55,535 nucleotides of DNA, taken from positions 1-55,535 of the forward strand of contig QPMI01000690.1 of assembly GCA_004431415.1 (NCBI GenBank). Direction: 5' to 3'. This document shows, piece after piece, positions 1 through 48,915 of this stretch. The notes below the pieces were generated by a model. It did not search any database. It was not told where the DNA came from and saw nothing but the letters and a program-made list of their open reading frames with translations. Position 1 is the first letter of the stretch. Each line of letters begins with the position of its first letter. A program made the translations under genes and the position numbers. The stretch comes from Cyanophora paradoxa CCMP329. Taxonomy: Eukaryota > Plantae > Glaucophyta.

Positions 1-560
1 CACTGAGTCAGGCTGCCTCGCGTTAAACTCGACGCCATAGAGCAGCAGCTTCCAAGTCGGCGACGCTCGTGTGTGATCCAACGCTACGGTGCGGGGCGCC
101 AAAAGCGGCGGATCCAACGCCACTGCATTGCGTTAAACTGGACGCTACGATTCGGGCGCCGAGCATCGCGGGAGATTCAACGCCACTGCCTCGCATTAAA
201 CTCGGCAATGATCGTGTGAAATCCAACGCTACGGACCGCCAACGGTGCGGGGCGCCAAGAGGGGAGGATTCAACGCCACTGCAATGCGACTGTATTGCGT
301 TAAACTGGACGCCACGGTACGGGCGCCAAGCCCCGCGGGGGATCCAATGCCACTGCTTCGCGTTAAACTTGACGCCATATTGCAGCTAGCGTTTCCCAAT
401 TGCAAGCTCAACCTCGTGTGATCATGAGATCTAACGCTACGGTGCGTGGCGTCAAGCCGCGGGGGATAAAACGCCACTGCATTGCGTTTGACTCGACGCC
501 ATATTCAATGACTGCAGCTTGGCGACGCTCGTACAAGATCCAACGCTACGCGTATACGTA
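1..560 (+). repeat. Degenerate direct-repeat region with iterated RACGCYAC motif (continuation of 48230-48900)
   Basis: Repeated GATCCAACGCCACTGC and GCGTTAAACTGGACGCYAC blocks, all in one orientation. Confidence 0.8.
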
Positions 561-1562
561 CGTATACGCGTGCATGGTAAACGTATGCATAGCATTGCAT
601 ACCCGCCGGCGCCGGGCCGGTATACCGTACGTTGGCCCGGTAGTACCGGTGCGGCCCGGGCGCCGGGCGCCGCGGGCCACGGTAACTAGAACGTTGACGT
701 CGACGTTCACGTTGTCGCAGTTGCAATGGGGTACAGCTGGTCTCGAGGAAAAAAAACAACGACTTGCAGCAGCAGCAGCAGCCGGCGAGCCGGGCACGGA
801 TCGACTCCCATCATCCTCGGCACACCACCACGCATCCAGCTTGCCCAGCAGCGTGTACGCGCACTCGCGAGTAGCCCGGCCGATCGGCCAGTGTGCGATC
901 AACGTCGAGGCGCGCCGCGGTACCGGTTTCTAGCACAGATCAAAGAGATGCCGCACGCGAGCCGCGCCACTGAGCGGTCCGTGTCGTCGGGGGATTGTCC
1001 GAGCGTGCGCGCTCCGAGGTTCGCCCCGCCCGCTCTCGCCTCGGACAGCCGGGACAGGTCGCCGGGCACGGGCGCTCTTCTGACGCTCGGCGGAACCTCG
1101 GGATCACGCAGACTATCTACTGAAGCTCCGCGGGATCCTTGCGCCCTCGTTGACGTGTGCGTCGCCGCCGGCCTCCGGAGCGTTGGTTGACCTGACCTCG
1201 TCGCGCAGCGCTCTCAGGAGCGTGATCGAGCACCGTGCACCAAAGTCCGCGCCTCTTGACACGCCTGGGACGCGCCGCCGCGACGGGTTCGCTCCCCGCC
1301 CGCTCCCGGCCTCGCGCTCTCGATCCCGATCGGGCGCCTCGCGCGACGCGTCGGCGGCAGGCCTCGTCGACGCGTCGCGACCCTTGGCCGCGCGCGTACG
1401 CGACGGAGCGGCGCCCGGCGGCCCCGCAGAGCGCGCATACCGCCTGCAAGAAGTGTCCCCGCGGCCGCACGGACTCTCTTGCATCGCGCGTACTTTCCAC
1501 CTCGCCTCTCGTACGAACCCTGACCGTCTTTGCAGCGGCGTGGCGCGACAGACGACCGCCTC

Positions 1563-2960
1563 CCGTACCCCTGGCTACGGCGGCGGCAGCGAGGGGGGTA
1601 GAGGTGAGCGCGGGAGACTCCCCCCCCCCAAGGGACCTGAGCCGCCCCCTTCTTCCGCCCGCAGATCCCGCTCCTTCTGGGCGGCGGGGCGAGTCTCCAC
1701 CGGCCCCGTACCCTGGCTACGGCGGCGGCGGCGGTGAGGGGTAGAGGTGCGCGCGGGAGACTCGCCGGCCCCCCCCAAGGACCTGAGCCGCCCCCCTTCT
1801 TCCCGCCGCAGATCCCGCTCCTTCTGGGCGGCGGGCGAGTCTCCACCGGCCCCGTACCCCTGGCTACGGCGGCGCGGCGGCGAGGGTAGAGGTGCGCGCG
1901 GGAGACTCGCCGGCCTCCCCCAGGGACCTGAGCCGCGCCCCTTCTTCCCGCCCGCAGATCCCGAGCCTTCTGGGGCGGCGGGGCGAGTCTCACCTCCCCG
2001 TACCCTGGTTACGGCGGCGGCGGCGAGGGGGGTAGAGGTGAGCGCGGGAGACTCGCCGGCCTCCCCCGAGGGACCCTGACCCGCGCCCCGTCTTCCCCGC
2101 CGCAGATCCCGCCCCCTCTAGGGCGGCGGGGCGAGTCTCCACGCGCCCCCGTACCCCTGGCCACGGCGGCGGCGGCGAGGGGGTAGAGGTGCGCGCGGGA
2201 GACTCGCCGGCCCCCCCCAAGGGACCTGAGCCGCCCCCCTTCTTCCCGCCCGCAGATCCGCCCCTCTAGGGGCGGCGGGGCGAGTCTCCACCGCCCCGTA
2301 CCCTGGCTACGGAGGCGGCGGCGGGGGGGGGGGGTAGAGGTGAGCGCGGGCGACTCGCCGCCCCCTCCCCAGGGGACCCTGACTCGCGTCCTTCTTCCCG
2401 CCCGCAGATCCCGCTCCTTCTGGGCGACGGGGCGAGTTTCCACCGGGCCCCGTACCCCTGGCTACGGCGGCGGCGGCGAAGGGGGTAGAGGTGCGCGCGG
2501 GAGACTCGCCGGCCTCCCCCGAGGGGCCTGACCCGCGCCCCGTCTTCCCGCCCGCAGATCCCGCTCCTTCTGGGGCGGCGGGGCGAGTCTCCACCGGCCC
2601 CGTACCCCCTGGCTACGGGCGGCGGCGGCGAGGGGGGTAGAGGTGAGCGTGGGAGACTCGCCGGCCTCCCCCGAGGGACCTGAGCCGCTGCCCCGTCTTC
2701 CCGCCCGCAGATCCCGAGCCTTCTGGGCGGCGGGGCGAGTCTCCACTGGCCACCGTACCCTGGCTACGGGCGGCGGCGGCAAGGGGGTAGAGGTGAGCGC
2801 GGGAGACTCGCCGGCCTCCCCCGAGGGACCTGACCGCGCCCCTTCTTCCGCCGCAGATCCGAGCCTTCTGGGGCGGCGGGCGAGTCTCCACCGACCCCTG
2901 TACCCCTGCCTACGGCGGCGGCGGCGAGGGGGTAGAGGTGAGCGCGGAGACTCGCCCCGC
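1563..2960. repeat. Tandem array, ~150-bp unit, about 9.5 copies; each unit has GGAGACTCGCC in both orientations
   Basis: GTAGAGGTG recurs at 1598, 1741, 1886, 2032, 2183, 2334, 2485, 2637, 2787 and 2932. A second copy lies at about 49910-51320. Confidence 0.95.
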
Positions 2961-3057
2961 CGCCCCCTGGGCCCGCCCGCCCCGCCCCCCGCCCCTCCCC
3001 TCTCGGACTCATCGGCCCTCAATTCGACAGGGCTGCGGGCGGAGCGCGGGGGCGCGG

Positions 3058-3536
3058 CTACGCGCGCTGCGGGACGGGCGGCCAGCTGTGAGAGCCGAGG
3101 GCGAGGGAGAGGGCGTCGTAGGCGAGCCAGAAGCCCTCCTGCGGCTCCGGGGGCGCCGCGAAGAGGGCCCGCGGCGCCATGCGCTCCTGCGCGCGCCGGG
3201 ACGCGTTGCGGGTCGACCGGTGGAGACCGAAGAGGCGGGCGGCGTGGGGGCAGCGGCTGGGCTTCAGCGTCGCGGCCGCGAGCTCCCGTGCGTGCTCGCC
3301 GCCAGAAACTGCCTCAGCTCCTTGGCGCTCAGACGCGACAGCGCCCTGACCATCCCTCCGTCTCCAGGTCGACGTGCAGCACCTGCCAGGGCGCGATCCG
3401 CTCCGCGGCGCGACGGGACGCGGCGCGGGTCGACTTGCGGATGGCGACGATGGCGGCGACGGGCAGCGGTCACGGTCGCGGACGCGTCGTCCCCGGCCGC
3501 GGCGCGGGTCGCGACGCGAGCGGTGGTGCGGGGCAT
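3058..3536 (-). CDS. Hypothetical protein, ~160 aa (frameshifted in this copy)
   Basis: The repeat copy reads through uninterrupted (MPRTTARV...SWPPVPQRA). A TATAAAT box lies ~60 nt upstream on the minus strand (~3590). Confidence 0.6.
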
Positions 3537-3971
3537 CTTGTTTCGATTCGAGAGAGAGAGAGTGGCACGAGGCCGGGCGCGCCCCCCATTTATACCCCCG
3601 AGGGCAGGGCTCGGCCCGAATCCGGGCACCCCCCCCTTTCCCCTCCCCTCCTCTCCTCCCCCCCGTACCCCCCCATCCTGACCTGTTTCCCTCGCCCCCG
3701 CAGGTCCCTTTCGTCTCCGCGCCTGGGGCCCCGCCCCGCCCGCCGCCCACCCCTCCACTCCCCCTCCCCACCCTTCTCGCCCAGGTACCCCTCCTCGCCC
3801 CCTCCCCCCGCCTGGAGACTCGCCGCGCCCCCCGCAAACGTCCCCGCCCTCACCCCCCCCCCCCCACGCAGGCCGAGGCCGCGGTGGTACACGGATACGT
3901 TGCCGCTGCAGGAGCGGGGGTACCCGCGCGGCTACCCGGGCGCCCCGGTCCGCGCGCCCCGCCCTCTGCCC

Positions 3972-4808: not shown

Positions 4809-7800
4809 ATGCCTCCCGTCGCGTCTCCCCTCGTCGTCGCCGCCGTCGAGTCTCCCGGCGGCGCGTCGCCCCCGAAACGGGAGGCGGCGCCGGCGGGCGT
4901 CGCGCCCGGCCCGGCCCCGCGTCGCGTCTCCACCTCCTCGGCCCCGCCCCCGTCGCAATCGCGAGGATGGGGCGGGGGCGTGGACGCGGCGGGCTCGCGG
5001 GGGCGGAGCCCATGGAGGTCGACGTCGCGCCGGCCGCCGCCGCCGCCGCCGCCGCCCGGGTCCGGCTGGAGGCCCACGCCCTCGTCAAGCCGGCCGTCCC
5101 GGGCCTCCCCGACCCCTTCAACCAGCGCTGGCGCCGCCGCCCCCTCCGCGACCTCGTCGACGCGGCGGCGCGGCGCGCCTTCTGCCAGGCCGCCTCCACC
5201 CTCGCCGTCCGCCGCCCCGACGGCTCCCAGACCGCCTGCGTCTACGCCGGATTCCTCGACTTTGACGCCGCCGGCATCGCGCCCTCGGAGAAGAAGGGCC
5301 TCGCCGCCAGGGCCGCCCCGCTGCGCACCCTCGCCGAGCTCTTCGCCGCCGAGCCGCGCCTCCTGGAGCCGGCCGGGACCGCGTACAGGCTCGCCAAGGC
5401 GTGCGGGGCGTACCCCCCCGCGCCCGGCGAGGCGCCGCTCGAGTGCCTCGTCACCTTCAGCGGCCTCAAGGCTTCCACGTCCTCCTCCGCCACCCCGCCC
5501 TGCTCGTCCGGGCCCCGGGGCGCGCGTCAAGGCGGACGGCCAGGTGGAGCCGGCGGCGGCCGGCGGCGGCCGGGCCTACTCCGTGGACGACCTCCTGGAG
5601 ACGGCGCTCGTACCCTGCTCCGCAGGCTGCCGGGCCTCTCCGAGGAGGACGTGCTCGGCATCGTGGCGGCGATCGACAGGTCCCCGCTCAACCCCAACTG
5701 CGGCCTCCGCCTCGACGAGTACCCCCACCCGCTCACGGGGCGGTACCCCGTCGCCGTCTCGGGCCCCGACCTCGACGCCCTGATCGAGCCCGACGGCGAG
5801 GCGGCGGAGCGGGTCCTCATCGCCGGCGACGGCCCCGCCCCGGAGATCTCGGCCTTTCTCTCCGGCCTCTTCGCCGACCTGGAGCGGCGCGTGGGGACGG
5901 AGGAGGCCGTGGCCGCCCTCCCGGCCCTCCCCGAGGCCCCGAGCGCCCCGCGCGAGGGCGGCGGCGCGAGCAGGAAGCGTCGGCGGGACGGGAGCCCGGC
6001 CCGGGGCGGCGCCGGCAGCGCGCCCGAGGCCCTGCGCCGGGCCCTGGAGCTCGCCCCGCACCATCGCGATCGGCGGGGCGCGCCCCGCAAGGTCCGACTC
6101 GTGGGGCGCTCGGAGGACGGGCGCTACGTCACGTTTCGCGTCAGCCCCGCGGCGGGCAGCGGCGCCCGGTGCCACCTCGGCGTCGAGCACGACTGGCGCG
6201 GGACCCTCTGCTCGGTCTCGCAGCTCCTCCCGGGGGCGAGCATGGTGGCGTTCCGGTGCGGGGGCCAGAACCACTCGGACTGCGCCCGGCGCCCCGTCTT
6301 TGGGCGGCCCGTCTGGGACGGGGCGCGGGCGGACCCGGCCGAGGAGGCGGCGGACGACGCGGCCCTCGTGGCCCTCGGCGAGTGCCTCTCGAGCATCGCG
6401 GACGGGGCGCGCGGCGGCGGCGCCGCCCCGCCCGCCCGCACCCTCCCGTACCCCTTCTCCGTCGTCCCCCGCACCAACGACCGCGTCTACTCTGTCGACG
6501 CGCCCTGCGCCGAGTGCGGCGGGGCGCGCGGGGGCGTGCTCGTCGACGTTCTGGCGCGCGAGGTCAAGGCGTTCCCGTGCGCCGGCTGCAAGGCGGCGAG
6601 CCCCGAGGGGCGCACCCGTCGCCTCGACCTCCTCCCCGAGCTGGGCTCGGAGCTGCGCGCCGCGGAGGACGCCGTGCAGCGCGCCCTCGTCGCGCGGGCG
6701 CTGGAGGCGAACGGGGGCCCCGGCATCGCGCTCTTCGGCGCCGCGGGCCCGAAGGGCTGGCTGGAGGCCCTCCCGCCCCTCGGCGGGCAGGCCGGGGAGC
6801 AGCTCGTCGCGATCATCGAGGTGCTGCGCCAGCGGGTCGTGGCCAAGGACTGGTCCGGCGAGCCGATCCGCCGCGGGCTCGTGCCGGAGGCGGCGCGGAA
6901 GGCGCTGGACGCGCTCCCGCTCCCCGACCTGCGCGAGCCCCTCGGGCGGCCCGCCGGCGGGGGCTTCGACTGGCGTGACATCGTCCACGACGCCAACGAC
7001 CTCGGCGACCCGCGGCGCCGGTGGGTGGACAAGGAGGCGGTCGAGGGGGCGCTCCGCGGGCCGGCCACGCGGCGAGGCATGCTCTTCCTCCGGGCGCAGA
7101 CGGGTACGGGCAAGTCGCAGGCGATCGTCCACCTCCTCGCCGAGATGCGCAAGTCCCCCGCCGCGTACGGCCTGCCCCAGCACTTCAGGATCCTCTACGT
7201 CGTCGCGGGGCGGATCCACGACGAGCTCCTCCTGGCGGACACGCGCTACACGGCGATCTGCGCGGTGCCGTGGACCTCGTACAAGGAGATGACGCCGGGG
7301 CAGCTGGCGCAGGCGAGCGCGCAGCTCATGTCGACCGTCGAGTCGATCCAGCGCCTCGAGGGCGCCTTCCAGGTCGTCGTCGTGGACGAGGGGGCCAAGG
7401 CGCTGGCCACGCTGGCCCTCTCGACGACGCTGGCCAAGGAGGGGCGCCACAGCGCGGCGGTCGCGCGATTCAGAAGCCTGTTCGCCCAGGCGCACCGCCT
7501 CGTCATCGCCGACGCGGACCTCTCCCAGCCCGACGTCGACTTCTACGTCGGCCTCTTCCTCGGGGCCGGCGCGGCGGCGGCGGGGGCGCGGGGGGCCCCG
7601 GAGCCCTTCGTGGTGCAGTACCTGCACCGGCTCCGCGAGCACGCGCGGGCGGCGCTCCTCCTCCCCTGGATGTACGCCCCGCTCCTCGTCGCGGCGCACC
7701 TCCTGGCCGGCAAGCGCGTCGTCCTCTCCGCCGACGACCGCCGCGCCCTCTTCGCCACCCTCGCCCTCCTCCACGCCCACCCCGCCCTCCGCGCGCGGGT

Positions 7801-10412
7801 CGAGGCCGGCCGCCTGAGCTCGCTCTTCATCTACGCCGACGCGCCCGACGCGGAGAAGGAGAAGCTCAAGGAGAAGGCGCTCGTCGGGGCGCTCGACCTC
7901 TTCGCCTACAACTCGGCCGTACCCCAGGGCAGCGACTTTAACGAGGGCGGCTTCGACGTCTGCATCGTGGCGATGGGCGGGCGGACGTACGACGTGAACG
8001 GGGCGGGGCAGGGCATGGCGCGCGTGCGCTCTGTCGCGGAGCCGGACGTCTTCGTGTGCGCGGGGCGCGAGCCGCGGGAGGAGGCCGCCCTGGGGCCCCT
8101 GGGGGCGACGGTCGGCGGCGTCGAGGCCGTCTACGAGCGGCGCCTCGAGGAGGAGCGCGAGATGCGGGGGCGGGTCGAGGGCGACCGCGCCCGGCTCCCC
8201 CGGGCCGACCTCGCCTTCCTCCGCATGCAGGCGGCCCGCCTCGTCGTCCTGAACTGGAGCCGGCAGCGCACCGTCCAGGCCCTCGACGCCAAGTTCGGGA
8301 AGATGGGGTACGCGCGCGGCCTGGAGCTCGTCGAGAAGGCCGAGCCGCTCCCCAAGTCCGTCGCCTCGCTCCTGAACGGCCTCGCCGCGCGCGTGCGCTC
8401 GGCGGCGATCTACGCCCCCGTGGCCGCCGCCGCCACCCTCGGGGAGGAGGACCCCCGGACGGGCGCCATCGTGGAGAGCATGCTGGCCGGGAGGGCGCCG
8501 GCGGCGCTGGGTCGGTGGCCCGTGACCGAGGCGGAGAGGCTCGCGTGCCGGAAGCGCTTCGTGGCCGGCGCCCTCCGCATCGACCCCGCCGACGTCAGCC
8601 TCGCGGAGGTCGAGGCGCACGCCAAGGAGACGCCCGCCTCCCTCCGCCCCCTGATCCGCGCCTTTGGCGCCGCCGCCGGCCCCTTCCTCGCCGACCGCGA
8701 CGGGCGGGGGGCGGTCTACGGGAGGCACGGGGGGTACGGGCTCCTGGCGGGGCGCGTGGACAAGCAGCACACGCGGCGGAGCGCCCTCGCCCTCCTCGCC
8801 CTGGCGGCGGCCCCGGGCCCCCGGCGGGGCCCCGCGGCCCGGCCGCCCGGCGCCCTCGTCGTCGAGAAGCTCTCGCCCCTCGGGCTCCTCGACTCGTTCG
8901 CGCCGGACGCCTGGCCCGCGGCGGACCTCGCTCGCCTCGCGGCGGCGGTGGAGCGGGACCGGCTCTTCGAGCACGCGACCCGGCGGGACTTTGTGGTCGG
9001 GGCGGGCCTGCTCCAGCAGGCCGACCGGGCCGACGCGGCCGCGTGCAGGGCGTACCGCGCGCGCGCCCAGGAGCTCTTCGATCTGGCCAAGGAACCGACG
9101 CTGGAGGTGGCCGTGGGGAAGCACTTTCTCCGACTCCTGAAGCGGGCGGCCATCTGGGCGGGCGTACCCCTCAAGCCGGCCGTCTTCGCGGGCCCCCCGA
9201 AGCGCCGACAGGTCGGCGGGCGGCGGGTGACCCAGAGGGCGGCGTCGAGGGCGGGATTCGTGGTGGACTACCTCGCCCTCGCCTTTGTTACCTGCGCCCA
9301 CGCCAAGACCGAGTACGCGTCCCGGCGGCTCTTCGAGGCGTCGAACCCGGAGCCCGAGGCGGCGGCGGCGGCGGCGGAGGAGGAGGAGGAGGGGGAGGAG
9401 GAGGGCGCGGCTCCGGGCGGGGACGGCGAGGAGGGGGAGGGGGCGGGCGAGGGCGGCCGGCGGGGGGGGAGGAGACGGACGTGGCGGACGGCCTCGATCG
9501 GGCGAGCGAGGGCGGGGACGAGACGGCGGAGGCCGACCGGGAGGCCATCGAGGCGCTCCTCGCGGGGGCCGCCCCGGGGGAGCGCGCCCCCCTCCCGCCC
9601 GTCACGTACCCGGAGCCGGAGGAGGGCGCGGGCGCGCGCCGGTGGACCCGCCACGGGGCCCGCCTCTTCTTCTCCGCGATGAACCTGACGGCCGTCGCCA
9701 TGAGCGCGATCGTCGAGCTGGGGCGGCCGCTGCCGCAGCGCAGGCCCCTGCGCGAGCGCGCCGAGCTCCACCCCTCTGTCTGGTACGGGCCGGCGGCGCG
9801 GGCGCTGGCGGCGGAGCCCAACGAGCTGCTCGGGCGGCTCCTGGGGATGGGGGGGGGCGAGGAGGCGATCCGCGCGGCGGCGGCGCGCGTGCACGCGGCC
9901 CTGCTGGACTCGTGCGACGCGGAGGAGAGGGCGGGCGCCGAGTCCGAGGCGGAGCCGCGGGTGACGCCGGCGGCGCTCGAGGAGCTCCTCCGCGCCCTCT
10001 GCGAGCGGGCCGCCGAGGCGGAGGCGCGCTCCGCGGCGGATCCCGGCGTCGACGAGGAGGACGCGCGCTGGTTCGTGGGGCGCCTGGCCGAGGCCTGGCG
10101 CGCCGGCGCGGGGACGCGCTCCGACCCCGCCAGTTTCACCAAGAAGGAGCTCAACGGGATCTTCAAGCCCAAGGACCCGACGAGCGGGGAGGAGCTCCCC
10201 GTGACGCTCCGGGGGCTCCCGAACAAGGTCGCCGTCATCAAGCCCGGCAACAGCAGCGGGTCCGGCCTCGGCCTCGTCGCCGACTGGCTCGAGAGGCGCG
10301 GGGCGCCGTCCCTCCGCATCCAGCTCGAGTGGCGCGCCCGCCCAAGGGGAAGGAGCTCACGGGGATCGCCGTCCCCCGCGCCCTCTTTGCTCACTTCGGA
10401 TTCGACAGCTAG
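4809..10412 (+). CDS. AEP primase/PrimPol + UL52-like Zn finger + UL9 (origin-binding protein)-type SF2 helicase fusion; several apparent sequencing frameshifts
   Basis: AEP motifs: FLDFD, FSGLK/GFHV (1-nt slip at ~5470), IDRSPLNPNCGLRL. Zn finger: CHLGVEH...FRC...HSDC. Helicase motifs: AQTGTGKS, VVVDE, VIADAD, AYNSAVPQGSDF, QGMARVR. The C-terminus continues through frames 8056..10728 and 9285..10412 to FGFDS*. The start may be 4809 (ATAAAAAGGGGAC at 4745) or 5012. Confidence 0.85.
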
Positions 10413-10780
10413 GCACCCCCTCCTGTACGCGAGCACCTCTGAACGCGTGCGGCTCCCTCTTCCCTCGGTGTTCGGGGTGGGGGTACGGGGGCGGGAGGGA
10501 GGGGAGGGGAGGGGGAGGGGCCCGGGCGCCCCGCCCCGTTCCGCCCTCGCAGGGCTCGCAGCCGGCCGTTCGCGCTCCAAAGGTGCGGCGTACCCCGCCC
10601 CCCCCCCCCCCCCCCCCCCCCCGCTTACCCCTCGTGACAGGGCCCGTTCGAACGAGGCCTTCGCATGCGCCCTCTCATCTGAGCGATTCCCTTTTCGGGT
10701 ATTTTTCTCGCGCCCCGCCGCACTATAAAAAAGATCGCGCCGCCCCGAAACCTCACTCTCAAGTTTCGCAGCTTCGCAAC

Positions 10781-11478
10781 ATGAGCTCGGCCCTTTCCGT
10801 CGCGTCCTCTCTCGACATGATCGACCCGGCGCTTTTCGGTCGCGACGGCGCGCTCTTCTCCTGCGGCGCACCGGCCCCGGGCGGCCTGGACTCGGCCCGG
10901 CTCCCTCCCGTCGCGTCGATCCTCGCCGCCGCGCCCGACGCGGAGAAGGAGAAGCTCATGGAGAAGGAGCTCGTCGGGGCGCTCGACCTCTTCGCCTACA
11001 ACTCGGCCGTACCCCAGGGCGGCGACTTTAATGAGGGCGGCTTCGACGTCTGCGTCGTGGCGATGGGCGGGCGGACGTACGACGTGAACGCGGAAAAGGA
11101 GAAGCCCAAGGAAAAGGAGCTCGTCGGGGCGCTCGACCTCTTCGCCTACAACTCGGCCGTACCCCAGGGCGGCGACTTTAACGAGGGCGGCTTCGACGTC
11201 TGCGTCGTGGCGATGGGCGGGCGGACGTACGACGTGAACGCGGAAAAGGAGAAGCCCAAGGAGAAGGAGCTCGTCGGGGCGCTCGACCTCTTCGCCTACA
11301 ACTCGGACGTACCCCAGGGCGGCGACTTTAACGAGGCTGCTTCGACTTCTGCATCGTGGCGATGGGCGGGCGGACGTACGACGTGAACGCGGCGGGGCAG
11401 AGCATGGCGCGCGTGCGCCGTTTCGCGGAGCCGGCCGTCCCGCGCGCCCTCTTTGCTCGCTTCGGATTCGACAGCTAG
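10781..11478 (+). CDS. Chimeric ORF copy 1 (Zn-knuckle gene N-terminus + 3x helicase motif V-VI segment + helicase C-terminal tail); 1-nt frameshift near 11336
   Basis: Near-identical to 11854..12552, with TATAAAAA at ~10724. Confidence 0.5.
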
Positions 11479-13533: not shown

Positions 13534-13572
<39 letters not shown>

Positions 13573-25290: not shown

Positions 25291-25374
25291 CGCGCGCAGG
25301 CGCGGGAGATCTTTGCGGGCCGTGACACCTAGAACTCACCGTCTCGCTCATACTATGATATCCCGCGTCTCGGC

Positions 25375-35100: not shown

Positions 35101-35164
35101 TCCCACGACCCCTCGCACTCCGTTTGCCGAGCGCCGCTGCAGAGGTTCTCGCGCCCGTACGCGT

Positions 35165-38060
35165 GCGGCGGGGCCCTGAGGGGCGCGCGGCGAGTTTCCA
35201 GCGGGGTCCAGATTTGGAGGCGGGGTACGGGACCGCCCTTCTCCTCGCCCGCCCTCGGCTTCTCACGCCCGTGCAGCGGGGCCCTGAGGGGGGCGCGGCG
35301 AGTTTCCAGCGGGGGAGGGTCGGGTCTGGAGACGGGTACGGGACCGCCCTTCTCCTCGCCCGCCCTCGGCTTCTCACGCCCGTGCAGCGGGGCCCTGAGG
35401 GGGGCGCGGCGAGTTTCCAGCGGGGGAGGGTCGGGTCTGGAGACGGGTACGGGATTCCCCTTCTCTCCCTCGCCCTCGGCTTCTCACGCCCGTGCAGCGG
35501 GGCCCTGAGGGAGGCGCGGCGAGTTTCCAGCGGGGGAGGGTCGGGTCTGGAGACGGGTACGGGACCGCCCTTCTCCTCGCTCGCCCTCGGCTTCTCACGC
35601 CCGTGCAGCGGGGCCCTGAGGGGCGCGGGGCGAGTTTCCAGCGGGGGAGGGTCGGGTCTGGAGACGGGGTACGGGATTCCCCTTCTCGCGCTCGCCCTCG
35701 GCCTCTCACGTCCGTGCAGCGGGGCCCTGAGGGGGGGCCCTGCGAGTTTCCAGCGGGGGAGGGTCGGGTCTGGAGACGGGGTACTGGATTCCCCTTCTCT
35801 CGCTCGCCCTCGGCTTCTCACGCCCGTGCAGCGGGGCCCTGAGGGGCGCGCGGCGAGTTTCCAGCGGGGGAGGGTCGGGTCTGGAAACGGGGTACGGGAT
35901 TCCCCTTCTCTCGCTCGCCCTCGGCTTCTCACGTTCGTGCAGCGGGGCCCTGAGGGGGGCGCGGGGCGAGTTTCCAGCGGGGGAGGGTCGGGTCTGGGGA
36001 CGGGGTACGGGATTCCCCTTCTCTCACTCGCCCTCGGCTTCTCACGTCCGTGCAGCGGGGCCTTGAGGGGCGCGGGGCGAGTTTCCAGCGGGGGAGGGGC
36101 GGGTCTGGAGACGGGTACGGGATTCCCCTTCTCTCACTCGCCTCGGCTTCTCACGCCCGTGCAGCGGGGCCCTGAGGGGGCGCGGCGAGTTTCCAGCGGG
36201 GAGGGTCGGGTCTGGAGACGGGGTGCGGGATTCCCCTTCTCTTTCTCGCCCTCGGCTTCTCACGTCCGTGCAGCGGGGCCCTGAGGGCGCGGGGCGAGTT
36301 TCCAGCGGGGGAGGTCGGGTCTGGAGACGGGGTACGGGATTCCCTTCTCTCCCTCGCCCTCGGCTTCTCACGCCCGTGCAGCGGGGCCCTGACTGGGGCG
36401 CGGCGAGTTTCCAGCGGGGGAGGGTCGGGTCTGGGGACGGGGTACGGGACCGCCCTTCTCCTCGCTCGCCCTCGGCTTCTCACGCCCGTGCAGCGGGCCC
36501 TGAGGGGGGCGCGGCGAGTTTCCAGCGGGGGAGGGTCGGGTCTGGAGACGGGGTACGGACCGCCCTTCTCCTCGCTCGCCCTCGGCTTCTCACGCCCGTG
36601 CAGCGGGGCCCTGAGGGGGGCGCGGCGAGTTTCCAGCGGGGGAGGGTCGGGTCTGGAGACGGGGTACGGGATTCCCCTTCTCTCCCTCGCCCTCGGCTTC
36701 TCACGCCCGTGCAGCGGGGCCCTGAGGGGGCGCGGCGAGTTTCCAGCGGGTCCGGGTCTGGAGGCGGGGTACGGGACCGCCCTTCTCCTCGCTCGCCCTC
36801 GGCTTCTCACGCCCGTGCAGCGGGGCCCTGAGGGGGGCGCGGCGAGTTTCCAGCGGGGGAGGGTCGGGTCTGGAGACGGGGTACGGGACCGCCCTTCTCC
36901 TCTCCCGCCCTCGGCTTCTCACGCCCGTGCAGCGGGGCCCTGAGGGGGCGCGGCGAGTTTCCAGCGGGGAGGGCGGGTCTGGAGATGGGGTACGGGATTC
37001 CCCTTCTCTCCCTCGCCCTCGGCTTCTCACGCCCGTGCAGCGGGGCCCTGAGGGGGCGCGGCGAGTTTCCAGCGGCCTCCTCGTACCTTCTGGAGACTCG
37101 CCACCACACCCGGTGAGAGGGGGAGCGCTAGAACTCTGACCGTACCCCACACCCCCCTACCCGCCCCCCGAGACTCGCCGCCGCCCCGAAAGAGAGCGGC
37201 GCTTAATCTCTGACCGCACCCCTAGTCGCCTCCCTCCCGCCCCCCTTGGAGACTCGCCGCTGCCCCCCCAGAGAGAGAGAGTGGCGCTTAATCTCTGACC
37301 GTACCCCCACTCCCCTCCCCCTCCCCCCCTGGAGACTCGCCGCTGCCCCCCCGAAGCAAACAGCTCTATAATATTGACCGTACCCCCAGCTCCCTCCCCC
37401 CTCCCCCCCTGGAGACTCGCCGCTGCCCCCGAAAGAGAGCGGCGCTTCATCTCTGACCGTACCCCACCTACCTCCCCCTCCCCATTGGAGACTCGCCGCT
37501 GCCCCCCAGAGAGAGAGAGAGAGAGTGGCGCTGAATCTCTGACCGTACCCCCACCTACCTCCCCCCTCCCCCCCCTGGAGACTCGCCGCTGCCCCCGAAA
37601 GAGAGTGGCGCTGAATCTCTGACCGTACCCCCAGCCCCCTCCCCCCTCCCCCCCTGGAGACTCGCCGCCGCCCCCTCGAAGCAAACGGCTCTCGAATTTC
37701 GGGCGTACCCCCCACGTACCCCCTCGTTCCAACTCCCCCGGGAGACTCGCCGCCGCCCCCGAGAGGGCGACGCTAGAAGCTCGGCCGTACCCCCAGCTAC
37801 CCCCTCCCTCCCTCCCCCCCCCCTCTGGAGACTCGCCGCCGCCCCCCGAGAGAGAGCGGCGCAAAAGTTCCGAGCCGTACCCCCGGGCAGCCCCACCCCA
37901 CCCACCCCCTGGAGACCCGCCCGACGCCCCAGAACGAGCGAGCTTCGGCGCCCCCTGGGCCATCGGCGCGGGGCGCATGGCGCCCCTGAAACTCCTCTAC
38001 CCCCTGCCTCTTGCGGCGCGGTACCCCCCTCTCTCTCGCTTGATCGCCTTGCGGGCGCGA
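35165..38060. repeat. Right arm of large inverted repeat (~111-bp array x~17, then ~80-bp array x~11)
   Basis: GGCGAGTTTCCAGCGG recurs every ~111 nt to 37072, then CTGGAGACTCGCC every ~80 nt. Inverted relative to 17395-18765. Confidence 0.9.
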
Positions 38061-40421: not shown

Positions 40422-40833
40422 CTAGGCGAAAGCGGCGCCGTCCGCGAGCTCAAACGCGAGGCGGGGATCGGCGGCGGCGAGGGCCCGCATCTTGGCGAGC
40501 TTGCGCGGGCCGCCCGAGGCGGTCCGCTTGACCTCCATCTCGGCCGCGCGCGCGGCGGCGTTGGAGGGGAAGCCGTGCAGGACGGCGGCGAGGGCCCAGG
40601 GCCCGCGGCCGCGGGTGTAGGCGGTCTTGGACGAGCCCGAGAGGTGCTCGGCGAGGCGGCGGAGAAGATTCTGGGTGGATCCGACGTAGGCGAGGCCCGG
40701 GGCGAGGAGAGGAGGTAGACGACGGGGCGGGGCCGAGGCGCGCGACGAGCTCGGATGGGATTCGGAGGGTGGCGAGGGGTGGGCGGGGGCGGGCGGGCGG
40801 GGGGTACGGGGCATCGTGCGGAGCGGTGCTCAT
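40422..40833 (-). CDS. GIY-YIG endonuclease, SLX1-like catalytic domain (indels in the 5' part)
   Basis: VVYLL...LAYVGSTQNLLRRLAEHLSG...YTRGRGPWALAAVLHGFPSNAAARAAEMEVK, with catalytic Y, Y, R, H and E present. Confidence 0.85.
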
Positions 40834-41062: not shown

Positions 41063-44000
41063 TCAGACGGCGGAATCGGCGCCCGAGGGGCGCGGCGCTT
41101 GCGACGAGCTCGAGGCGCGCGCGAGGGGCGCCTGGGCGACGGCCGGGCGCTGGGCGCCGGGCTCGCCCTCGGGCGCCCGGCGGCCTTGCGCTTCGCGCTC
41201 GAGGAGCCCGCCGCGTCGGCGGCGCGGCGGGAGCCTCTCCGGATTCGTTGATGTGCCCGGCTTCTGCGCACGACGGCGGGGCGGGTCGGAGGGGCCCAGA
41301 GCGCGGAGGCCGCGCGGGCGCCGCGGCGCGGACCTTGAGGAGCGGCCGCCGCCGCCTGCGTGGACGTGACCGCATCCGCGGCGGGCCGGCGGTCCGCCGC
41401 GCCGAGCTTGAAAGCGGCCTCGCACTGCTTGAGAGAGTCCGAGTGCATCTCCTTTACTGTACCCTCGCGGACCGCCTGTTCGAGCGTGCCGTAATCGATG
41501 TCGAAGGGCCTGCGCGCGCGTTTCGGCCCGATTCACGGCGGCCGTCGCGCGGAGCGGAGCGGGAGGCGCTGCGCGCACTTTTTCTTCGGGAGGATCTGCG
41601 TGAACACCTCTTCGAAGACTTGGTACGTGAAGCCCCCCGAGATGGCGTCGGACGCGAGCTTGTTGACGTTCTCTCTCGCGCTGCACTCGGGCAGGAAAAC
41701 TCTGCCCAGCGCCTCCGGCACGCCCGTTCCCCCAAGCCGCCTGAGCTCCCGGTGGTATCGATCGATGGCCTCGCGCTCCAGCTCGTTGATGAAGCTCAGG
41801 ATGAACATGCGCCGCTGCTCGGCGTCGGGCGGGCGGATGTAGACGCTGCGGCAAGCCCCGGATGTCAGATCTAGAGGGCGGAATGCCGCGCGGCGGAGGC
41901 CTCGGGTTGGGGGTACGGCGCACTGCTTGGGGAACCGACGGTAGAATTTTCCCTCCAGATTCAAGGGGTAGTTTGTCGCCGCGATCAAGACGGGCCCGCC
42001 GCCCGCGGCGCCAGCCTTGCGACGTGCCCTGAGGTCACGTGCCAGCGCGGACATACCTTTCGCGCACTGCGGGCGGGCCGCGGGCGGGGCACGGTGAGCT
42101 CTGGGGCGGGGCGCGTCGCCGATCGCGACGACCCTCGGGACGTGCACCTGATCGGAGATGTTCTTGTGAAACTTGTCCCCGTTGCCGGACGCGCCGGCCT
42201 TCGGGAAGAGCGTGTCGACTTCGCTGCGGGGCCGGGCGGGCCGGCGCGTCGGACGGCCGCGGGGCACGGGCGTGGCCATGGAGTGGCGCGGGCCGAAGCG
42301 CACTCGCACAGGAAGACGACGTCCGGGAAGTGCTTGAGAAAGGCGAAGAACGCCTTGACGATGTTCTCAGACTCGCCGTACTGCGCATGCGGGGCAACGT
42401 CGGCGGCGGCGCGTGGGCCGAAGGTTCCGGGAGCGCGCACATATTTGCTGGTTTGAGTGTGGTCGTACTCCAGGAGCGCAAAGTTCAGCCTCCGCGCGAG
42501 CTCGCTCGCAAACTCCGTCTTCCCGTCCCCTGCAGCGGCCGGCTGGTTAGGAGCGGCGAGGGGCGAGGAAGGAAGCGACGCCGGCGGGCGCGCGCACGGG
42601 CGGGCCGTAGAGGAGAATCCCGTCCGGGGCTTTTTGGCGGAGTCGGGGACGTGGGGTCCCGGCGCCGCAGGATCATCGCCGAGGTATGCGTAGGCGCTCC
42701 TCAGCTCGTCGAAGAGGTCCGCCCGCCCGACTGGCGGGGCGTTCAGCGACGGCGTCGTGTCCCCGAACGCGACGGGCGCAGGGATGCGTACCGTATTCAC
42801 GTGCCGTCTGCTGCACGACGTCGGCGGACTTGAAGGCCGCGAGGATGGACTCTCTGGCGAGCGTCCGCACATCGGCCTGCCCGATCACCTGCACCGCCTT
42901 TTCCAGCGCCGCCTCGAGTGCCGCTTCGCTAGACGCACGAAGGCGTGAGACCGCGCGGGGCGGCGAGGGGCGCCCGCGGCTGGCGGGCGCGCGGGGCGAG
43001 GCACCTGCCACTGGGTCCCGGAGTGAAGAGCGCGCTCTCCGGGTCGAGGACGGGGAGGTCGCCGTCGAGGAGAAACTCGAGCGACTCGCCGTCGCCCTGC
43101 AGCCTCTTGTCCCCCGTAGACGCAGCTCCACGAGGCGCTCCCGGGCCGCATCGATGAGAGCCTTGGCCTCCGCCAGCGCCCGCGCCTTTGTGCGCTTGTT
43201 CCCGTTCTCCTGTTTCCCCGCCGGGCCAGCGGCGGCCGGCGCCGCGTCCCCCGCCGAGGGGCTGGCGGCGGGCGCCGCATCCCCCGCCCCCACCGGAGGG
43301 CAGGCGGCGGGCGCCGCGTCCCCTGCCTCAGCCGCGGGGCCCGGGGCCGGCGCCGCGTCCCCTGCCTCAGCCGCGGGGCCCGGGCCCGGCGCCGCGTCCC
43401 CTGCCTCAGCCGAGGGCCCGGGGCCGGCGCCGCGTCCCCTGCCTCAGCCGCGGGGCCCGGGCCCGGCGCCGCGTCCCCTGCCTCAGCCGAGGGGCCCGGG
43501 GCCGGCGCCGCGTCCCCTGCCTCAGCCGCGGGCCCGGGCCCGGCGCCGCGTCCCTGCCTCAGCCGAGGGGCCCGGGGCCGGCGCCGCGTCCCCCGCCGAG
43601 GGCCTGGCGGCGGGGGCCGCATCCCCCGCCCCCGCCGTCGCCGCAGGCGGGACAGCCGTCGCTTCGGGCGATTCCAGCTCCCGCTTGGCGAGGGCCGCCT
43701 GCCCAAGGGAGCGGAAGGGTCGTTGAGACGCTTGATGTGCTTTCGGGTCGTGTAGGGGCCGATCTGCCGCAGGGCAGGGAACGCACGCAGCGCCTCGCCG
43801 ATGTTGCGCATCCTCCGAAGCTGCGGCGCGGCGCGGGCGGGATTGGCGGCCGGAAAGAAGGGAGGGGAAGGGGGGGGGGGGACGGGAGGGGGGGAGGGAG
43901 GGGGGGAGGGGGGAGGGGGGAGGGGGGAGGGGGGTTCTGCACGGGCGGACCGCGTCGGCGAGGTTCTTCGCGCCGGTCCGGTCCTCCTTCTTCCGCTCCC

Positions 44001-45698
44001 CCGCCTCGAGGTCCTGGTCGGCCTTGCGGGAGATGGTGTTGTCGCGGAACTGCTGCACGCTACCATTCGTCTCGAGCGTGAGCAGCTCCGCAAAGTCGAA
44101 CGCGAGCTTGGGGGCCTCCGGATCGCCGGGATCCTTGAGGTTCTCCAACTTGGGGTCTCCCGGATCAGCCTTCTCCCGCATGTTCATCTCGACGATGTTG
44201 TTGATCTTCTCGCTCTTCACTTCTCGGCCACCTCGAACGAGAATGCGGCCTTGCGCTTCCCCTTGGAGTCGCTCGCTAGCTTTGCGCCAATCCGCCGGCC
44301 CTCGGACTCGCAGAAGAGCGCGATGTACTGCGGACGGTGCGTATGCGCCATCAGCGTCGATCGCGGCGGCCGGGGCGGGCGGGCCGGGCGGGCGCGCGGT
44401 GGTGGGGACGCGGACCGGACCTGGCATGCGATGACAAAGGCGCCGGTGCGCTCCTGCTCGGAGACTTGGAGGATGCGCTGGGTGTTCAGCATGTACGGAT
44501 CGAGCTCCCTGTACCGTGACGCGACGTTCTTATGTGCGAGATCACGTCCGTCGGAGCGTAGAGGTTCCGGGCCCCCGCGGGGCGCTCGCCGACTCTGACA
44601 AGGGTCCCTCGCGGGGACCGAGGCCACTCCGGCGATCGCTCGGCCCCGCCCCTCCTCGCCCGCGCCCGGCGCCGCGCGTGCATGCCCGGCGCGGCGGCCG
44701 CCGGGGGCCCCATCCGGAGCCGCCGATGCCACGCTGGCGGCGACGGCGCCGGCGGCCGGAGGCGACGGGTTGGGCTGCTCATTCTTGTAGCTGTAGGCGT
44801 CCCTCCAGCCCTCGAGGAGGTTGTCGACGATCTTCTCCGCCTTTTCCGCCATGCGCTTCTTCAGGAGCTCGCTCTCGTCGCCTCCGCCGCCCGAGCTCGG
44901 CGGCTTGCCGCTCCTGGAGTTCTTCTTTTTCTTCTTCTCGCCGTCGCCGTCCTCCTCGCTGCTGCTGCTGCTGCTCCTCTGCGTCTTCATCCGGATCCTT
45001 GTCCGAACCGCTGGCGCTGGATTCGTTGTCATTGGACGAATTCGGAGCGCCCTTGTTTCTGATCTTGTCCTCGAGCGCTGCCTGGTTGTTCACGCCGTTG
45101 GGCGTGGACAGAGCGCGATCCTTGAACAGCTTCCACTGCGCCTCCTGCTCCTTCCTCTTCTTCTTCGGCGGCTCCGTCTTCGCCGCCTCCGCGTCGTAGC
45201 ACTCCACAAACTTTGCGTGGGTGTTCTCCACCTTTTCGAGCCCGTGCGCCGCAGCTGCGCGCGGCGCCGAGCGGTCGGCGCGGGCCCCGACCTGGTAGCG
45301 CGGGGGCTCGTGGGGGCGTGTGCACCATTCACCCACGGCTCTCTTGTATTTGGCAAATTGCCTTATCGAGGAGAAGCAGAAGATACAGAGCCTGAGGCGC
45401 TTGGGGCACGTCGCCTCGCACAGCGAGACGGGAGGATCCAGGCTTTCTTGCACCCCGTACAGATGCCGCGGCCGCGGGGGCCTCTGCGCAGAGGCGCGCG
45501 CGCCTGTCAGGGTCCGCGCGCGGCGGCCGCGGGCGAGGCCTAGGGGCGACCGCGGAGCGCACGGGAGGCTCCAGGTTTGGGTTTCTCGGCGTCAACTTGG
45601 GGACCTTCGCGCTCGCGGGCCGCTGGCGCCTCTTTGCGCCCGGGATCCTCCGGATTCGTCCCCTCGCCGTGCTTGGCGGTCTTGCCCTCGCCGCTCAT
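41063..45698 (-). CDS. Large intron-rich protein with C-terminal classical AAA+ ATPase domain; ends approximate
   Basis: GILLYGPP|GTGKT (split by an intron, 1-nt slip), SKY|YGESENIVKAFF, VVFLCD|EVD, LIAATNYPLNLEGKFYRRF, VYIRPPDAEQR. The long charged N-terminal region is interrupted by GT..AG introns. Confidence 0.75.
43235..43640. repeat. ~39-bp coding minisatellite (AGDAAPAPGPSAE-like units) inside the AAA gene
   Basis: GGCGCCGCGTCCCCTGCCTCAGCCG is repeated about 7 times, with flanking variants. Confidence 0.9.
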
Positions 45699-46001: not shown

Positions 46002-46043
46002 GAAATTAGTGGACTGAGTCAAGATTTTCAGTCCACTAATTTC
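46002..46043. other. Perfect 16-bp inverted repeat with 10-bp spacer; candidate recombination site or circle junction
   Basis: GAAATTAGTGGACTGA-gtcaagattt-TCAGTCCACTAATTTC in lower-GC non-coding DNA. The structure is certain, the function is inferred. Confidence 0.6.
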
Positions 46044-47929
46044 TGCGTGGGTACCGGTGCTGCATCACGGCCCTGCATGCGTACGTACGTACGTACGCCC
46101 ACGTATACGAACGAAATTTTGCAACAGAATTCGAAATAAAAACCTTTGCACCGCATGGTACTGCGTATACCGCACTACGTATACCGCGTCGTGTGATCAT
46201 GCCTGAGTCGGCGTGACTCTCGTGGTGACTCACTGCAGCTGGCTCACTGCCAGCTAGAGTCACTGGTGAGTCGCGTCGCGTATACGTACTACAGTATACC
46301 AGGTCACAGCTCGCGGAAAAAAGGCGCATAGGCCGGTCTAGGACTTTAATTTCTCCCAGTGAAGATTTTCTCGCGAGCTCCAGCCATTGGATGAAAACGT
46401 TTCATTTGCGTACCCCAAACCTTCGTTCGCGCTCGTTCAACATGAAAGCTGCGCACAAAGCACTTCGTACCCACGCCTTCTTGCAGAGTCAGCGCCGCAG
46501 CGGAGAAAGCTGGTCGCCCCGCCGGCTTTCAGCAGCCTCCTTAGGTCCAGTGAGCTTCAGGGAAGCGGCGAAGGCGGCCCCAGGTGGCGGCAGTCCGCGG
46601 CGGCACTTTTGAGCGCGGAACAGGACCTGTTGACCGCCCACTCTCTTCCCACGCATCGAAGGCAGGTTCTGTATTCACTCTGATGCACTAGGACGCGTCC
46701 CGGGCTCTGGCGGTTCCTCACCGGACTCGCAACCGCAGTGGCACCTCCTTCACAGCACGCCTCCACGCACGCTACGCGTATACTATGCAAGCTAACGATC
46801 ATGCGGGTGCGTGTCTGCACGCGCCGCGCGCTGCCCAGCTGATGCGATGAGGTCGCTCCCGCCGTGTGCAGTTGTCTCCCAAAGTGCCAGAGCCGGGCCT
46901 CAGCGTAACGAGTGGATGCTACTCAAGCTACATAAGCTGTAGGCGAGCGAAGAAGGGTCGCTCAACAGCTCAGTTCCGCGCTAATCGAAAACGCGTTTGC
47001 AGGTCTCCCTAGTCCTTGGCGCCGACGACGGGGCCTCGCCGCCGGCTGCGCATCGTCGTTTCACGATGTACAGGTGCTATACTTCCTTTCCGCTCTCTTC
47101 TGCGACCATTTCGCCGCCGCCTGATCGACCACCACCACCACCAAGGCGCGGTCCTTCACCTCGGCGGCAGCCCTGGGCGGAATGACACGCAGCGGCATTC
47201 CGAGGCGTACGCAAGTGTGTTTTATAGCTTCTAGAACACCCCACGCCCTTCCCTTCGATGTGGCGCTCGCCCATGTCGCCCGTGTGCAAGGCACCTCGCT
47301 GTCTCTCGCGCGCGGGCGGGGCGTGGCGGCACTCCTTCTGGCATGTGAGGGCGTTGTACTGCATGCATAGGTGGGAAAGCGCACAACAAGACGAGCGGTG
47401 CCGGGGCGGCGAAACGCGCCGGATGGGCGGAAGCCGCGATTCGAACAACCGGGACCGATCCAGCGGCAGTCCTGGCGCCTGGCCCGCTCTATAGCTCGGG
47501 ACATACATCTAAAGCACGGTGAGAGCGTTGACGGAAGACGCGCGCCGCAGGATGGCTTTCGAGGAGCGTTTGTCTGCGGCGGGCGCGGCAAGCGAGCGAG
47601 AGCGTCGCATATACATCCCAAGCGCGCGGAGAGCGCGGAGGCCGAGCGCTGGAGCGAGCGGAGCGAGCTAGCCGGCGGCAAGTTTGGGCGAACGAAGGCT
47701 TTAGCGGGGGTAGCGCTAGCTAGTTGCACGTGGCTCACGTGCGCTGAGCCAATCCGATTTGCAGGAAGCACCGGATCGCGTTTCTATTGGCCGACTCGGA
47801 ATATATATATTCGGCAATTCCCTTGACTTAAAGTCTTGGTATATTTGGGGGGCCCTATATCGTGACTCAACGAGTAACACCGAACGGTCGCCCTTTTTTC
47901 CGCGAGCTGTGGGTAGTCCGAGTCCGTGC

Positions 47930-48915
47930 GTGACGCGACGTCGACGTCGCGACTCGCGATCGCGAGTCGCGATCGACTAACATGCACATGCATGCATATG
48001 CATATGTACATATTTTAACGTTATCCAGATTCATGACCGTACGCCGGTCCACTCAAATTAATAATTTTTATATCCGTACGCGTGACGCGTCGATCGACTT
48101 ATATAATGTTATATATATACACGTATCAATATCATAGCGCTAGCATATCCATACGCGTACGTCGACGTCCATCGCGCAAATGAATGTGACTAAAATTAAT
48201 TCAGTGTACATGTTAATTTTATAACTGAAACTCTACGCCACCGCAGCGGTGCGACGTTCGTGCAAGAATCAACGCCACGTTCCACGGTTCGGGCCGCTGA
48301 ATTAATCGGGCGCCGAGCATCGCGGGCGATCTGACGCCACTCACTGAGTCAGGCTGCCTCGCGTTAAACTCGACGCCATAGAGCAGCAGCTTCCAAGTCG
48401 GCGACGCTCGTGTGTGATCCAACGCTACGGTGCGGGGCGCCAATAGCGGCGGATCCAACGCCACTGCATTGCGTTAAACTGGACGCTACGATTCGGGCGC
48501 CGAGCATCGCGGGAGATTCAACGCCACTGCCTCGCATTAAACTCGGCAATGATCGTGTGAAATCCAACGCTACGGACCGCCAACGGTGCGGGGCGCCAAG
48601 AGGGGAGGATTCAACGCCACTGCAATGCGACTGTATTGCGTTAAACTGGACGCCACGGTACGGGCGCCAAGCCCCGCGGGGGATCCAATGCCACTGCTTC
48701 GCGTTAAACTTGACGCCATATTGCAGCTAGCGTTTCCCAATTGCAAGCTCAACCTCGTGTGATCATGAGATCTAACGCTACGGTGCGTGGCGTCAAGCCG
48801 CGGGAGATAAAACGCCACTGCATTGCGTTTGACTCGACGCCATATTCAATGACTGCAGCTTGGCGACGCTCGTACAAGATCCAACGCTACGCGTATACGT
48901 ACGTATACGCGTGCA
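47930..48915. other. Candidate replication origin: palindromes + AT-rich tract + iterated RACGCYAC motifs
   Basis: 26-bp palindrome at 47947-47972, AT-rich tract at 47980-48230, and about 17 co-oriented motif copies at 48234-48890. Confidence 0.45.

Follow-up and report, generated by a model that had tools for sequence, protein, structure and literature searches.

Contig QPMI01000690.1 of Cyanophora paradoxa CCMP329, a stretch of 55,535 bp that we call the window, contains a 48,341-bp unit (1..48341; GC content, 71%) with genes for a primase-helicase, a tyrosine recombinase (YR), TFIIB, a histone H3 variant, an AAA+ ATPase, GIY-YIG-like and RING proteins, and several orphans, interspersed with repeat clusters (Table 1). 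A first-pass annotation made from the sequence had described a capsid-less element outside any known class and proposed an autonomous nuclear plasmid or integrative episome; its list lacked the Ulp1 protease fused to the YR, the AAA+ ATPase, an 83-copy motif, and an inserted host transposon. On balance, and with considerable reserve, we read the element as a virus-derived, intron-bearing, low-copy circular nuclear plasmid of C. paradoxa.

The unit is real, as either a circle or a head-to-tail repeat, and the terminal redundancy claimed for it is borne out by short reads. In a self-comparison of the window, positions 48342-55535 repeat 1-7175 at 97.5% identity, with 173 differences (33 substitutions and 140 indel events); same-base runs contain or adjoin 121 of 139 short indels. 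At the substitutions in the first 700 bp (48444, 48805, and 48979), contigs from the short-read DNA runs X1 and X9 gave the letter of copy 1 in three of three cases, so both ends represent one sequence and their differences are consensus errors. The join itself is crossed by one X1 contig (47912-49870; depth, 227). On a second contig, gene numbers place the H3 variant (g1895), the orphan at 21-23 kb (g1897), the helicase (g1902), the RING protein (g1903), and the propeller-like protein (g1906) in an order that is a reversed permutation of the unit and passes through the join. For a free circle and an integrated array alike, the join is interior sequence, and it fits both. Counting this contig, element genes are present on four further contigs; proteome models P0163, P0176, and P0181 are the window's own reading again and were excluded as independent copies.

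Near-identical gene models in EukProt carry the name C. paradoxa, all 20 listed runs with all or part of 29000-38900 share one species label, and 17 DNA runs contain about 0.8 of the words of that segment. Four runs are treated here as RNA-type, which is a guess, none being recorded as RNA; their contigs are spliced. In these contigs introns of both the histone and the AAA+ gene are skipped, so that the spliceosomal introns predicted earlier are now seen in transcripts. Because it has such introns and an inserted transposon with variant copies elsewhere, we place the element in the nucleus.

The depth comparison proposed with the first-pass annotation puts element contigs about 3 to 6 times above contigs presumed to be host in three DNA runs. 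Depths were 143-251 in X1, 218-441 in X9, and 195-366 in X17, compared with 31-84 for chance-hit contigs, which have matches of 20-25 bp and are presumed host; a few joint rows beyond 31-84 (20-23 and 96-119, for example) were excluded, and the medians omit the X1 contig of depth 143. The X9/X1 depth ratio was 0.96-1.30 (median, 1.0) for 11 chance-hit contigs and 1.48-1.76 at three element places, and the X17/X9 ratio was 1.16-1.32 for eight chance-hit contigs and 0.80-1.0 at four element places. Alleles also differ between runs, with T only in X9 and C only in X1 at 39653 (both occur among proteome models) and mixtures in X17 at 29058 and 29096 (88/258). A contig that links inverted 33355 to 48333 via a piece of the 39-bp minisatellite is suggested in X9 by two joint rows with the same depth (128.5). 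Across 43.9-48.3 kb the depth falls from 361 to 222-263, and roughly one third of X9 copies appear rearranged. No host junction occurs among the matches listed, over the 20.4 of 48.3 kb compared with reads. The depth, allele, and run-to-run variation data favor an episome, short of proof.

The proposed primase-helicase is supported from several sides. The replicase carries the AEP motifs DxD and SGxKGxH, and its UL9-like helicase matches Herpes_ori_bp in Pfam with an E value of 0.008, below the curated cut-off; a 31%-identical paralog on another contig (P0004) groups with Herpes_ori_bp clusters in the Atlas at 0.97. Frame breaks near 5470-5610 and 9460, which model P0001 reads through, are likely consensus errors. 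When the helicase region was searched against at most 8000 candidates, each 798-2540 aa long, four proteins came back, all from C. paradoxa. In IMG/VR, the replicase gave 0 of 63 and no pattern match; P0004 had no match in phage GenBank entries, and folding the primase region from its single sequence gave no usable model (predicted local distance difference test [pLDDT], 44). The tandem duplication that adjoins the gene holds three copies each of a 150-bp helicase-gene piece behind a promoter-like stretch; it yields short chimeric reading frames and is found as well in models of two other contigs.

Trained on 12 coding stretches, a codon model recovered about 14 genes in the unit. Beyond them it scored three coding-like segments at 7.2-8.7, where the shuffle maximum was 7.9, and the scan found no spare coding space. 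TFIIB, the RING protein, and one GIY-YIG protein passed Pfam cut-offs, and the AAA+ ATPase had a weak CdvC/Vps4-type match in NCBIfam (E value, 0.011). Families of capsids, packaging ATPases, terminases, and polymerases gave no matches in Pfam (291 frames), PHROG (20 proteins), or NCBIfam (19), libraries that miss divergent capsids; structure prediction covered the primase region and the YR. The capsid-less description thus holds at this level of recognition, no polymerase gene is present in the unit, and a Bro-N domain, which had been cited as well, found no match in the Pfam scans. Matches were also lacking for the 3061-3300 part of the small orphan and for the 101-aa orphan (Pfam, PHROG, and NCBIfam), for the 21- to 23-kb orphan (none convincing in Pfam or PHROG), and in a PDB search with the 604-aa protein, whose C-terminal third weakly resembles WD40-like clusters (Atlas, 0.90-0.93; low recognition). 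Two labels given by eye gained no support, Skp1/BTB for the orphan at 23610..24410 (searched in Pfam and PDB) and zinc knuckle for the gene at 12927..13820 (no family match). An Rfam scan gave no matches.

The histone gene matches H3 with an E value of 2e-28, and RNA-type contigs from two studies skip its introns at 27406-27473 and 27241-27339 and one intron in the 3' untranslated region. Relative to H3.2, the protein has an 11-residue insertion in loop 1, a 9-residue insertion in the tail, and changes at Q68, F84, and T107, positions that we take to be indicative of CenH3. Its tail can be aligned to canonical H3, keeping K4, K9, K14, K18, K27, and K36 and losing T3 and S10, whereas a CenH3 tail would not be alignable; all 60 listed PDB matches are H3 or H3 chimeras. 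The 11-residue insertion does give it the longer, divergent loop 1 that, with a divergent alpha-2 helix, is described as a CenH3 feature (PMC2995078). The CenH3-like histone announced earlier therefore stands for loop 1 and the fold and not for the tail.

The AlphaFold model of the YR (pLDDT, 86.6) has Cre as its top Foldseek matches, and the 381-aa domain keeps the catalytic residues R198, K235, K310-x-x-R313, H347, and Y356; the C48/Ulp1 protease fused to it matches Pfam just under the cut-off (E value, 0.0013). Among 1.84 billion representatives searched, 225 relatives were found at an E value of <0.001, falling into 225 clusters at 50% identity. In IMG/VR, the window YR found two weak phage-like integrase loci, and YR alignments found 0 of 7 and 0 of 20. 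RNA splices over the gene, considered as YR mRNA, were rejected as such because their intron ends read CT..AC and are thus antisense. Runs of two studies contained this antisense RNA, which has an 83-nt intron overlapping a predicted sense intron of equal length (83 nt) and, once its pieces are joined, one open frame of 433 codons. We also rejected model P0006 as the allele set of X9: it shares the change at 31769, but others that lie inside X9's contig are missing in X9, and P0006 is a separate copy.

Relatives of the YR occur in varied company. A marine metagenomic locus (L006:2878-18322) combines one with a protelomerase (E value, 6e-15), a DnaJ-bearing frame, an SF2 helicase, and, by eye, cysteine-protease-like and SET-like frames, in a virus-like island not assigned to a class. 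Two divergent YR-family copies lie close together in L032, L043, L066, and L015, the last of which also has a D5-like helicase (by eye) and a pogo-type transposase, and chromodomain frames adjoin the YR in L069 and L073. The metagenomic protein P0035 appears by eye to fuse Ulp1-like, YR, and chromodomain-like parts, so the Ulp1-YR layout extends beyond Cyanophora.

The motif GGARACTCGCC occurs 101 times in the window (83 per unit), compared with 0.29 expected, and 81 of the 83 copies lie in four clusters, with two isolated. Retention of one motif across unlike arrays suggests that it is a putative protein-binding site. The cluster at 17-19 kb is an inverted homolog (about 74-83% identical) of that at 35.1-38.1 kb. 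A second short word, GGGGTAC, has 110 copies in the unit, 7.5-fold over a second-order model; 57 lie outside arrays, several of them in introns.

Two places are candidate sites of replication or recombination. The perfect inverted repeat at 46002..46043, the only one of its kind in the unit that is not low in complexity, is a candidate site for recombination or for an origin. Four X9 contigs leave this 16-bp palindrome after the spacer (46027) into a variant arm and other sequence, which could reflect a related repeat family or a recombination junction. The stretch from 47912 to 48900 is a candidate replication origin. RNA-type contigs (depth, 9-16) cover 48456-49359 (equivalent to 115-1018), degenerate repeats with no predicted gene. 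Next to the candidate origin lies the transposon, presumably CACTA-like, at whose edges (46304 and 47912) X1 contigs break exactly and of which variant copies occur elsewhere. Its RNA is multi-exon and apparently noncoding, with some GC-AG introns, and has a contig depth of 87-93, compared with 4-18 for element genes.

Table 1. Features of the window by position (strand: +, forward; -, reverse;., none)
Feature	Coordinates	Strand	Evidence
151-bp tandem array, 16 GGARACTCGCC copies in alternating orientation	1535..2995	.	Repeat scan
Small orphan gene, about 160 aa, frameshift errors	3061..3538	-	Codon scan
C3HC4 RING protein, 213 aa	3972..4613	-	Pfam, E 2.6e-7
Replicase: AEP primase-polymerase, zinc fingers, UL9-like SF2 helicase, C-terminal domains	4809..10370	+	Motifs, Pfam, Atlas
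Tandem duplication, about 1.07 kb: promoter-like DNA and helicase-gene pieces	10368..13087	+	Self-comparison, repeat scan
Two-intron gene, two zinc-knuckle-like motifs by eye, no family match	12927..13820	+	Codon scan
101-aa beta-rich orphan	13895..14200	+	Codon scan
Second GIY-YIG-like protein	16123..16970	-	39% identity to the GIY-YIG at 40.4-40.8 kb (61 aa aligned), E 3e-11
Repeat cluster, 78- to 80-bp and 118-bp units, 14 motif copies	17340..18990	.	Repeat scan
TFIIB, single exon, 307 aa	19304..20227	+	Pfam PF00382, E 9.5e-7; NCBIfam PRK00423, E 0.001
Multi-exon orphan, N-terminal zinc-finger-like motif, start approximate	21092..23283	+	Codon scan
Orphan	23610..24410	+	Coding signal in codon scan
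Repeat cluster, 43-bp array and 720-bp duplication, 25 motif copies	24540..26700	.	Repeat scan
Histone H3 variant, 9 coding exons, one GC donor	27201..28266	-	Spliced model, RNA contigs
Antisense RNA, spliced at three GT-AG introns, overlapping the YR gene's 5' half	29146..30646	-	RNA-type contigs
Ulp1-YR: N-terminal domain, Ulp1 (C48) protease, tyrosine recombinase, C-terminal domain	29248..33698	+	Pfam, fold, alignment
Repeat cluster, 111-bp and 80-bp units, 26 motif copies	35146..37930	.	Repeat scan
604-aa beta-rich protein, likely beta-propeller, full model P0175	38333..40141	+	Atlas, WD40-like 0.90-0.93
GIY-YIG nuclease, start approximate	40422..40815	-	Pfam, E 4.7e-11
AAA+ ATPase, intron rich, 39-bp coding minisatellite	41063..45697	-	Walker A and B by eye across exons
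Perfect 16-bp inverted repeat, 10-bp spacer	46002..46043	.	Inverted-repeat scan
Nonautonomous transposon, 1.6 kb, perfect 20-bp terminal inverted repeats starting CAC, 3-bp GGT duplication	46305..47911	+	
AT-rich stretch, then degenerate 30- to 60-bp direct repeats across the join (=1-560)	47912..48900	.	
Assembly overlap, second error-prone reading of 1-7175	48342..55535	+	Short-read contigs with copy-1 letters

Several explanations compete with a plasmid. The virus-derived unit could make up one or more head-to-tail arrays (about 4-6 copies) within chromosomes, placed there by the YR or arising through local amplification and inherited with the chromosome, a reading that we consider unlikely but credible. 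The depth ratios close to 4 and 6 might reflect integer copy numbers, and endogenous giant-virus regions have been reported in C. paradoxa (PMC12344493, where the text and supplement, as far as available, give no contig names). On two of the four further element contigs, the propeller and helicase gene numbers are 45 apart, a gap that exceeds one unit, so those contigs may carry host genes. An array sits less well with the absence of a host junction among the matches listed for the 20.4 kb compared and with an element-to-host depth and allele make-up that vary between runs while chance-hit contigs stay in step. At the other extreme, ordinary single-copy host DNA with a misassembled repeat is scarcely credible: the long-read consensus is error prone and the GC content host-like, but the join is bridged by short-read contigs whose depth is several times that of presumed host contigs, the order is permuted on the second contig, and the genes form the set of a mobile replicon.

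That the unit is a defective part, minicircle or segment, of a larger resident DNA virus (nucleocytovirus- or mirusvirus-like), maintained by its own replicase and packaged by a helper if at all, seems improbable to us, although AEP-UL9 fusions are described in mimiviruses, African swine fever virus, malacoherpesviruses, some mriyaviruses, and SmDNAV (10.1101/2024.02.29.582850, 10.64898/2026.08.29.747986), and mirusviruses, some of which are episomal, commonly have histones, RING proteins, and introns (PMC12768974). The replicase paralog P0004 on another contig and the marine YR relatives beside a protelomerase and SF2 helicase (L006) or a D5-like helicase (L015, by eye) point the same way. 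Set against this, capsid, packaging ATPase or terminase, PolB, VLTF, and RNA polymerase genes were not recognized, GC content and introns are host-like, and no near-identical larger parent appeared among the protein matches. A true small virus whose capsid is too divergent to recognize, hidden in the 604-aa protein or the 21- to 23-kb orphan, would match Polinton-like viruses in size and in pairing a primase-helicase with a YR (PMC10120064, PMC12220804), and the 604-aa protein is beta-rich and lay outside the structure predictions. That protein, however, leans toward WD40 in its C-terminal third and has no PDB match; no capsid family appeared in PHROG or NCBIfam and no minor capsid gene was found, the sole ATPase beyond the helicase reads as an AAA+ rather than an A32/FtsK type, and the protease is fused to the YR. 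We regard such a virus as highly improbable.

Returning to the plasmid, a number of observations weigh against it. An array accounts for the continuous join and the permuted contig as well as a circle does. Contig depth does not equal true copy number and misses rare variants, the status of the chance-hit contigs as single-copy host DNA is a presumption, depth is uneven within the unit (X1, 143-251), and run-to-run differences could come from strain differences among the coded samples. The two largest orphans (the 604-aa protein and the 21- to 23-kb orphan) lay outside the structure predictions, and the histone, judged by alignment and fold, is an H3 variant that is CenH3-like in fold only rather than a demonstrated CenH3.

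The YR adds to these doubts. Its nearest relatives (P0006-P0012 and P0025) lie on eight other C. paradoxa contigs, one being 99% identical; seven of the eight form one branch with the window YR (support, 100, in a quick tree of 40 rows that omits P0011, which was too short), seven of the eight have the Ulp1-YR layout, whole or partial, and one relative's model is fused to a host-like gene. Neither the replicase nor other queried element genes occurred in any of 82 fetched YR loci, 80 of them metagenomic, with a median length of 3.2 kb and 4 of at least 10 kb. All three RNA splices over the gene are antisense, and sense-spliced YR mRNA was not seen. Contigs break on both sides of the cassette (28783 and 33775), and no pair of 4- to 6-bp terminal direct repeats was located at these breaks, the flanks of the window copy being those compared. 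As in Cryptons, a YR with its catalytic residues goes together with dispersed copies, and because Cryptons with a C48 peptidase have been described, the cassette may be a Crypton-like passenger. From the initial proposal of an autonomous plasmid or integrative episome, the multicopy nuclear unit survives, and its independence is qualified by this possible passenger and by the array.

If the element is a plasmid, its mechanism can be modeled on that of the 2-micron plasmid of yeast, and we infer each step from gene content. The AEP-UL9 protein would bind and open the origin and prime synthesis, and host polymerases would copy the circle, since the unit has no polymerase gene. A protein of the element may bind the 83-copy motif, either to recognize the origin or to tether the circle to chromosomes. 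The H3 variant would give the circle its own chromatin, and its long loop 1 and the loss of T3 and S10 could serve partitioning or escape from silencing. TFIIB may drive the element's own promoters, and the YR could resolve multimers or integrate and excise the circle. SUMO limits Flp in yeast; the fused SUMO protease may lift host SUMO control, and the antisense RNA may hold the YR down.

Comparison with the literature and with the membership traits of known groups gave no match, in agreement with the earlier statement that the element fits no described class; it would be an as yet undescribed kind of eukaryotic mobile DNA, likely a plasmid. Natural nuclear plasmids occur in few eukaryotes (yeasts, Dictyostelium, and some diatoms and red algae), and we know of none with a viral primase-helicase, TFIIB, and its own histone. 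A bolder claim, which we advance tentatively, is that this is a self-replicating capsid-less plasmid derived from large DNA viruses, the first in a glaucophyte, with its own H3 chromatin, an 83-motif partition locus, and a second, 31%-identical family member, and that it stands between giant viruses and plasmids as a eukaryotic replicon of a new class. If extrachromosomal, it would show a route from a large DNA virus to a capsid-less persistent episome. It would also provide a testable example of a selfish element equipped with an H3 variant of its own, and vectors for a model glaucophyte could draw on its ready-made origin and partition system. Should it be an array, it is still a virus-derived element outside the described classes, expressed, spliced, and variable, and it brings to light a eukaryotic YR family that is widespread (the 225 clusters noted above).

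We found no description of the element or its class in the literature, in which subscription journals were thinly covered. A term search of a genome paper for the species (PMC6704402) gave no occurrence of virus, viral, plasmid, circular, or histone, and adintovirus-like and Polinton-like elements are mentioned in passing elsewhere (PMC8502044, PMC12220804). Polinton-like viruses share the primase-helicase (or pPolB) with a YR (or rve integrase), GIY-YIG nucleases, a protist host, and a size of tens of kilobases (PMC10120064, PMC12220804). The element differs from them in its TFIIB, H3 variant, and AAA+ ATPase, in exceeding their usual 14-40 kb, and in being intron rich, with spliced histone and AAA+ transcripts, whereas endogenous Polinton-like viruses are described as lacking introns (PMC10120064). 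No double jelly-roll major capsid, minor capsid, or A32 ATPase was matched in Pfam, PHROG, or NCBIfam, which miss divergent capsids, and the pPolB, rve integrase, and terminal inverted repeats of Polintons/Mavericks are absent from the unit by Pfam and self-comparison.

Mriyaviruses (Yaraviridae and "Gamadviridae") resemble the element in size (35-45 kb), in having no DNA polymerase, and, in some, in an AEP-SF2 (UL9-like) protein, and they are predicted to replicate in the nucleus (10.1101/2024.02.29.582850). Mriyaviruses and SmDNAV, however, have capsids and VLTFs (10.1101/2024.02.29.582850, 10.64898/2026.08.29.747986), and a mriyavirus-like major capsid protein, packaging ATPase, VLTF2/3, RuvC, or HUH endonuclease was not found among the approximately 14 genes with general libraries rather than family-specific profiles. 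Episomal mirusviruses likewise form circular episomes in protist cultures and carry spliceosomal introns, histones, and RING proteins, but their genomes average 265 kb and include an HK97 virion module (PMC12768974). The element is below their >100 kb, and no HK97 capsid, triplex, portal, or terminase was recognized in it with general libraries rather than mirusvirus profiles.

Cryptons with a C48 peptidase (CryptonF-2_PS and CryptonS) share the combination of YR and Ulp1-type C48 and a dispersed family (PMC3212892), and their description may cover the 29- to 34-kb cassette alone. The Crypton descriptions compared here mention no replicase, TFIIB, or histone, and the whole element, with its AEP-UL9 gene, departs from a group that has no replication genes. 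For the closed circle of a nuclear plasmid, the join, permutation, and run variation fit, and an array fits too. Like the element, the yeast 2-micron plasmid is multicopy nuclear DNA with a YR, an inverted repeat pair, and a repeat locus. The element is about eight times larger and, unlike the 2-micron plasmid, encodes its own replicase, TFIIB, and histone; its YR is Cre-like by fold, and its inverted clusters are only about 74-83% identical. In the 2-micron plasmid, the STB locus is described as binding the CenH3 Cse4 and Flp as correcting copy number (PMC8318298).

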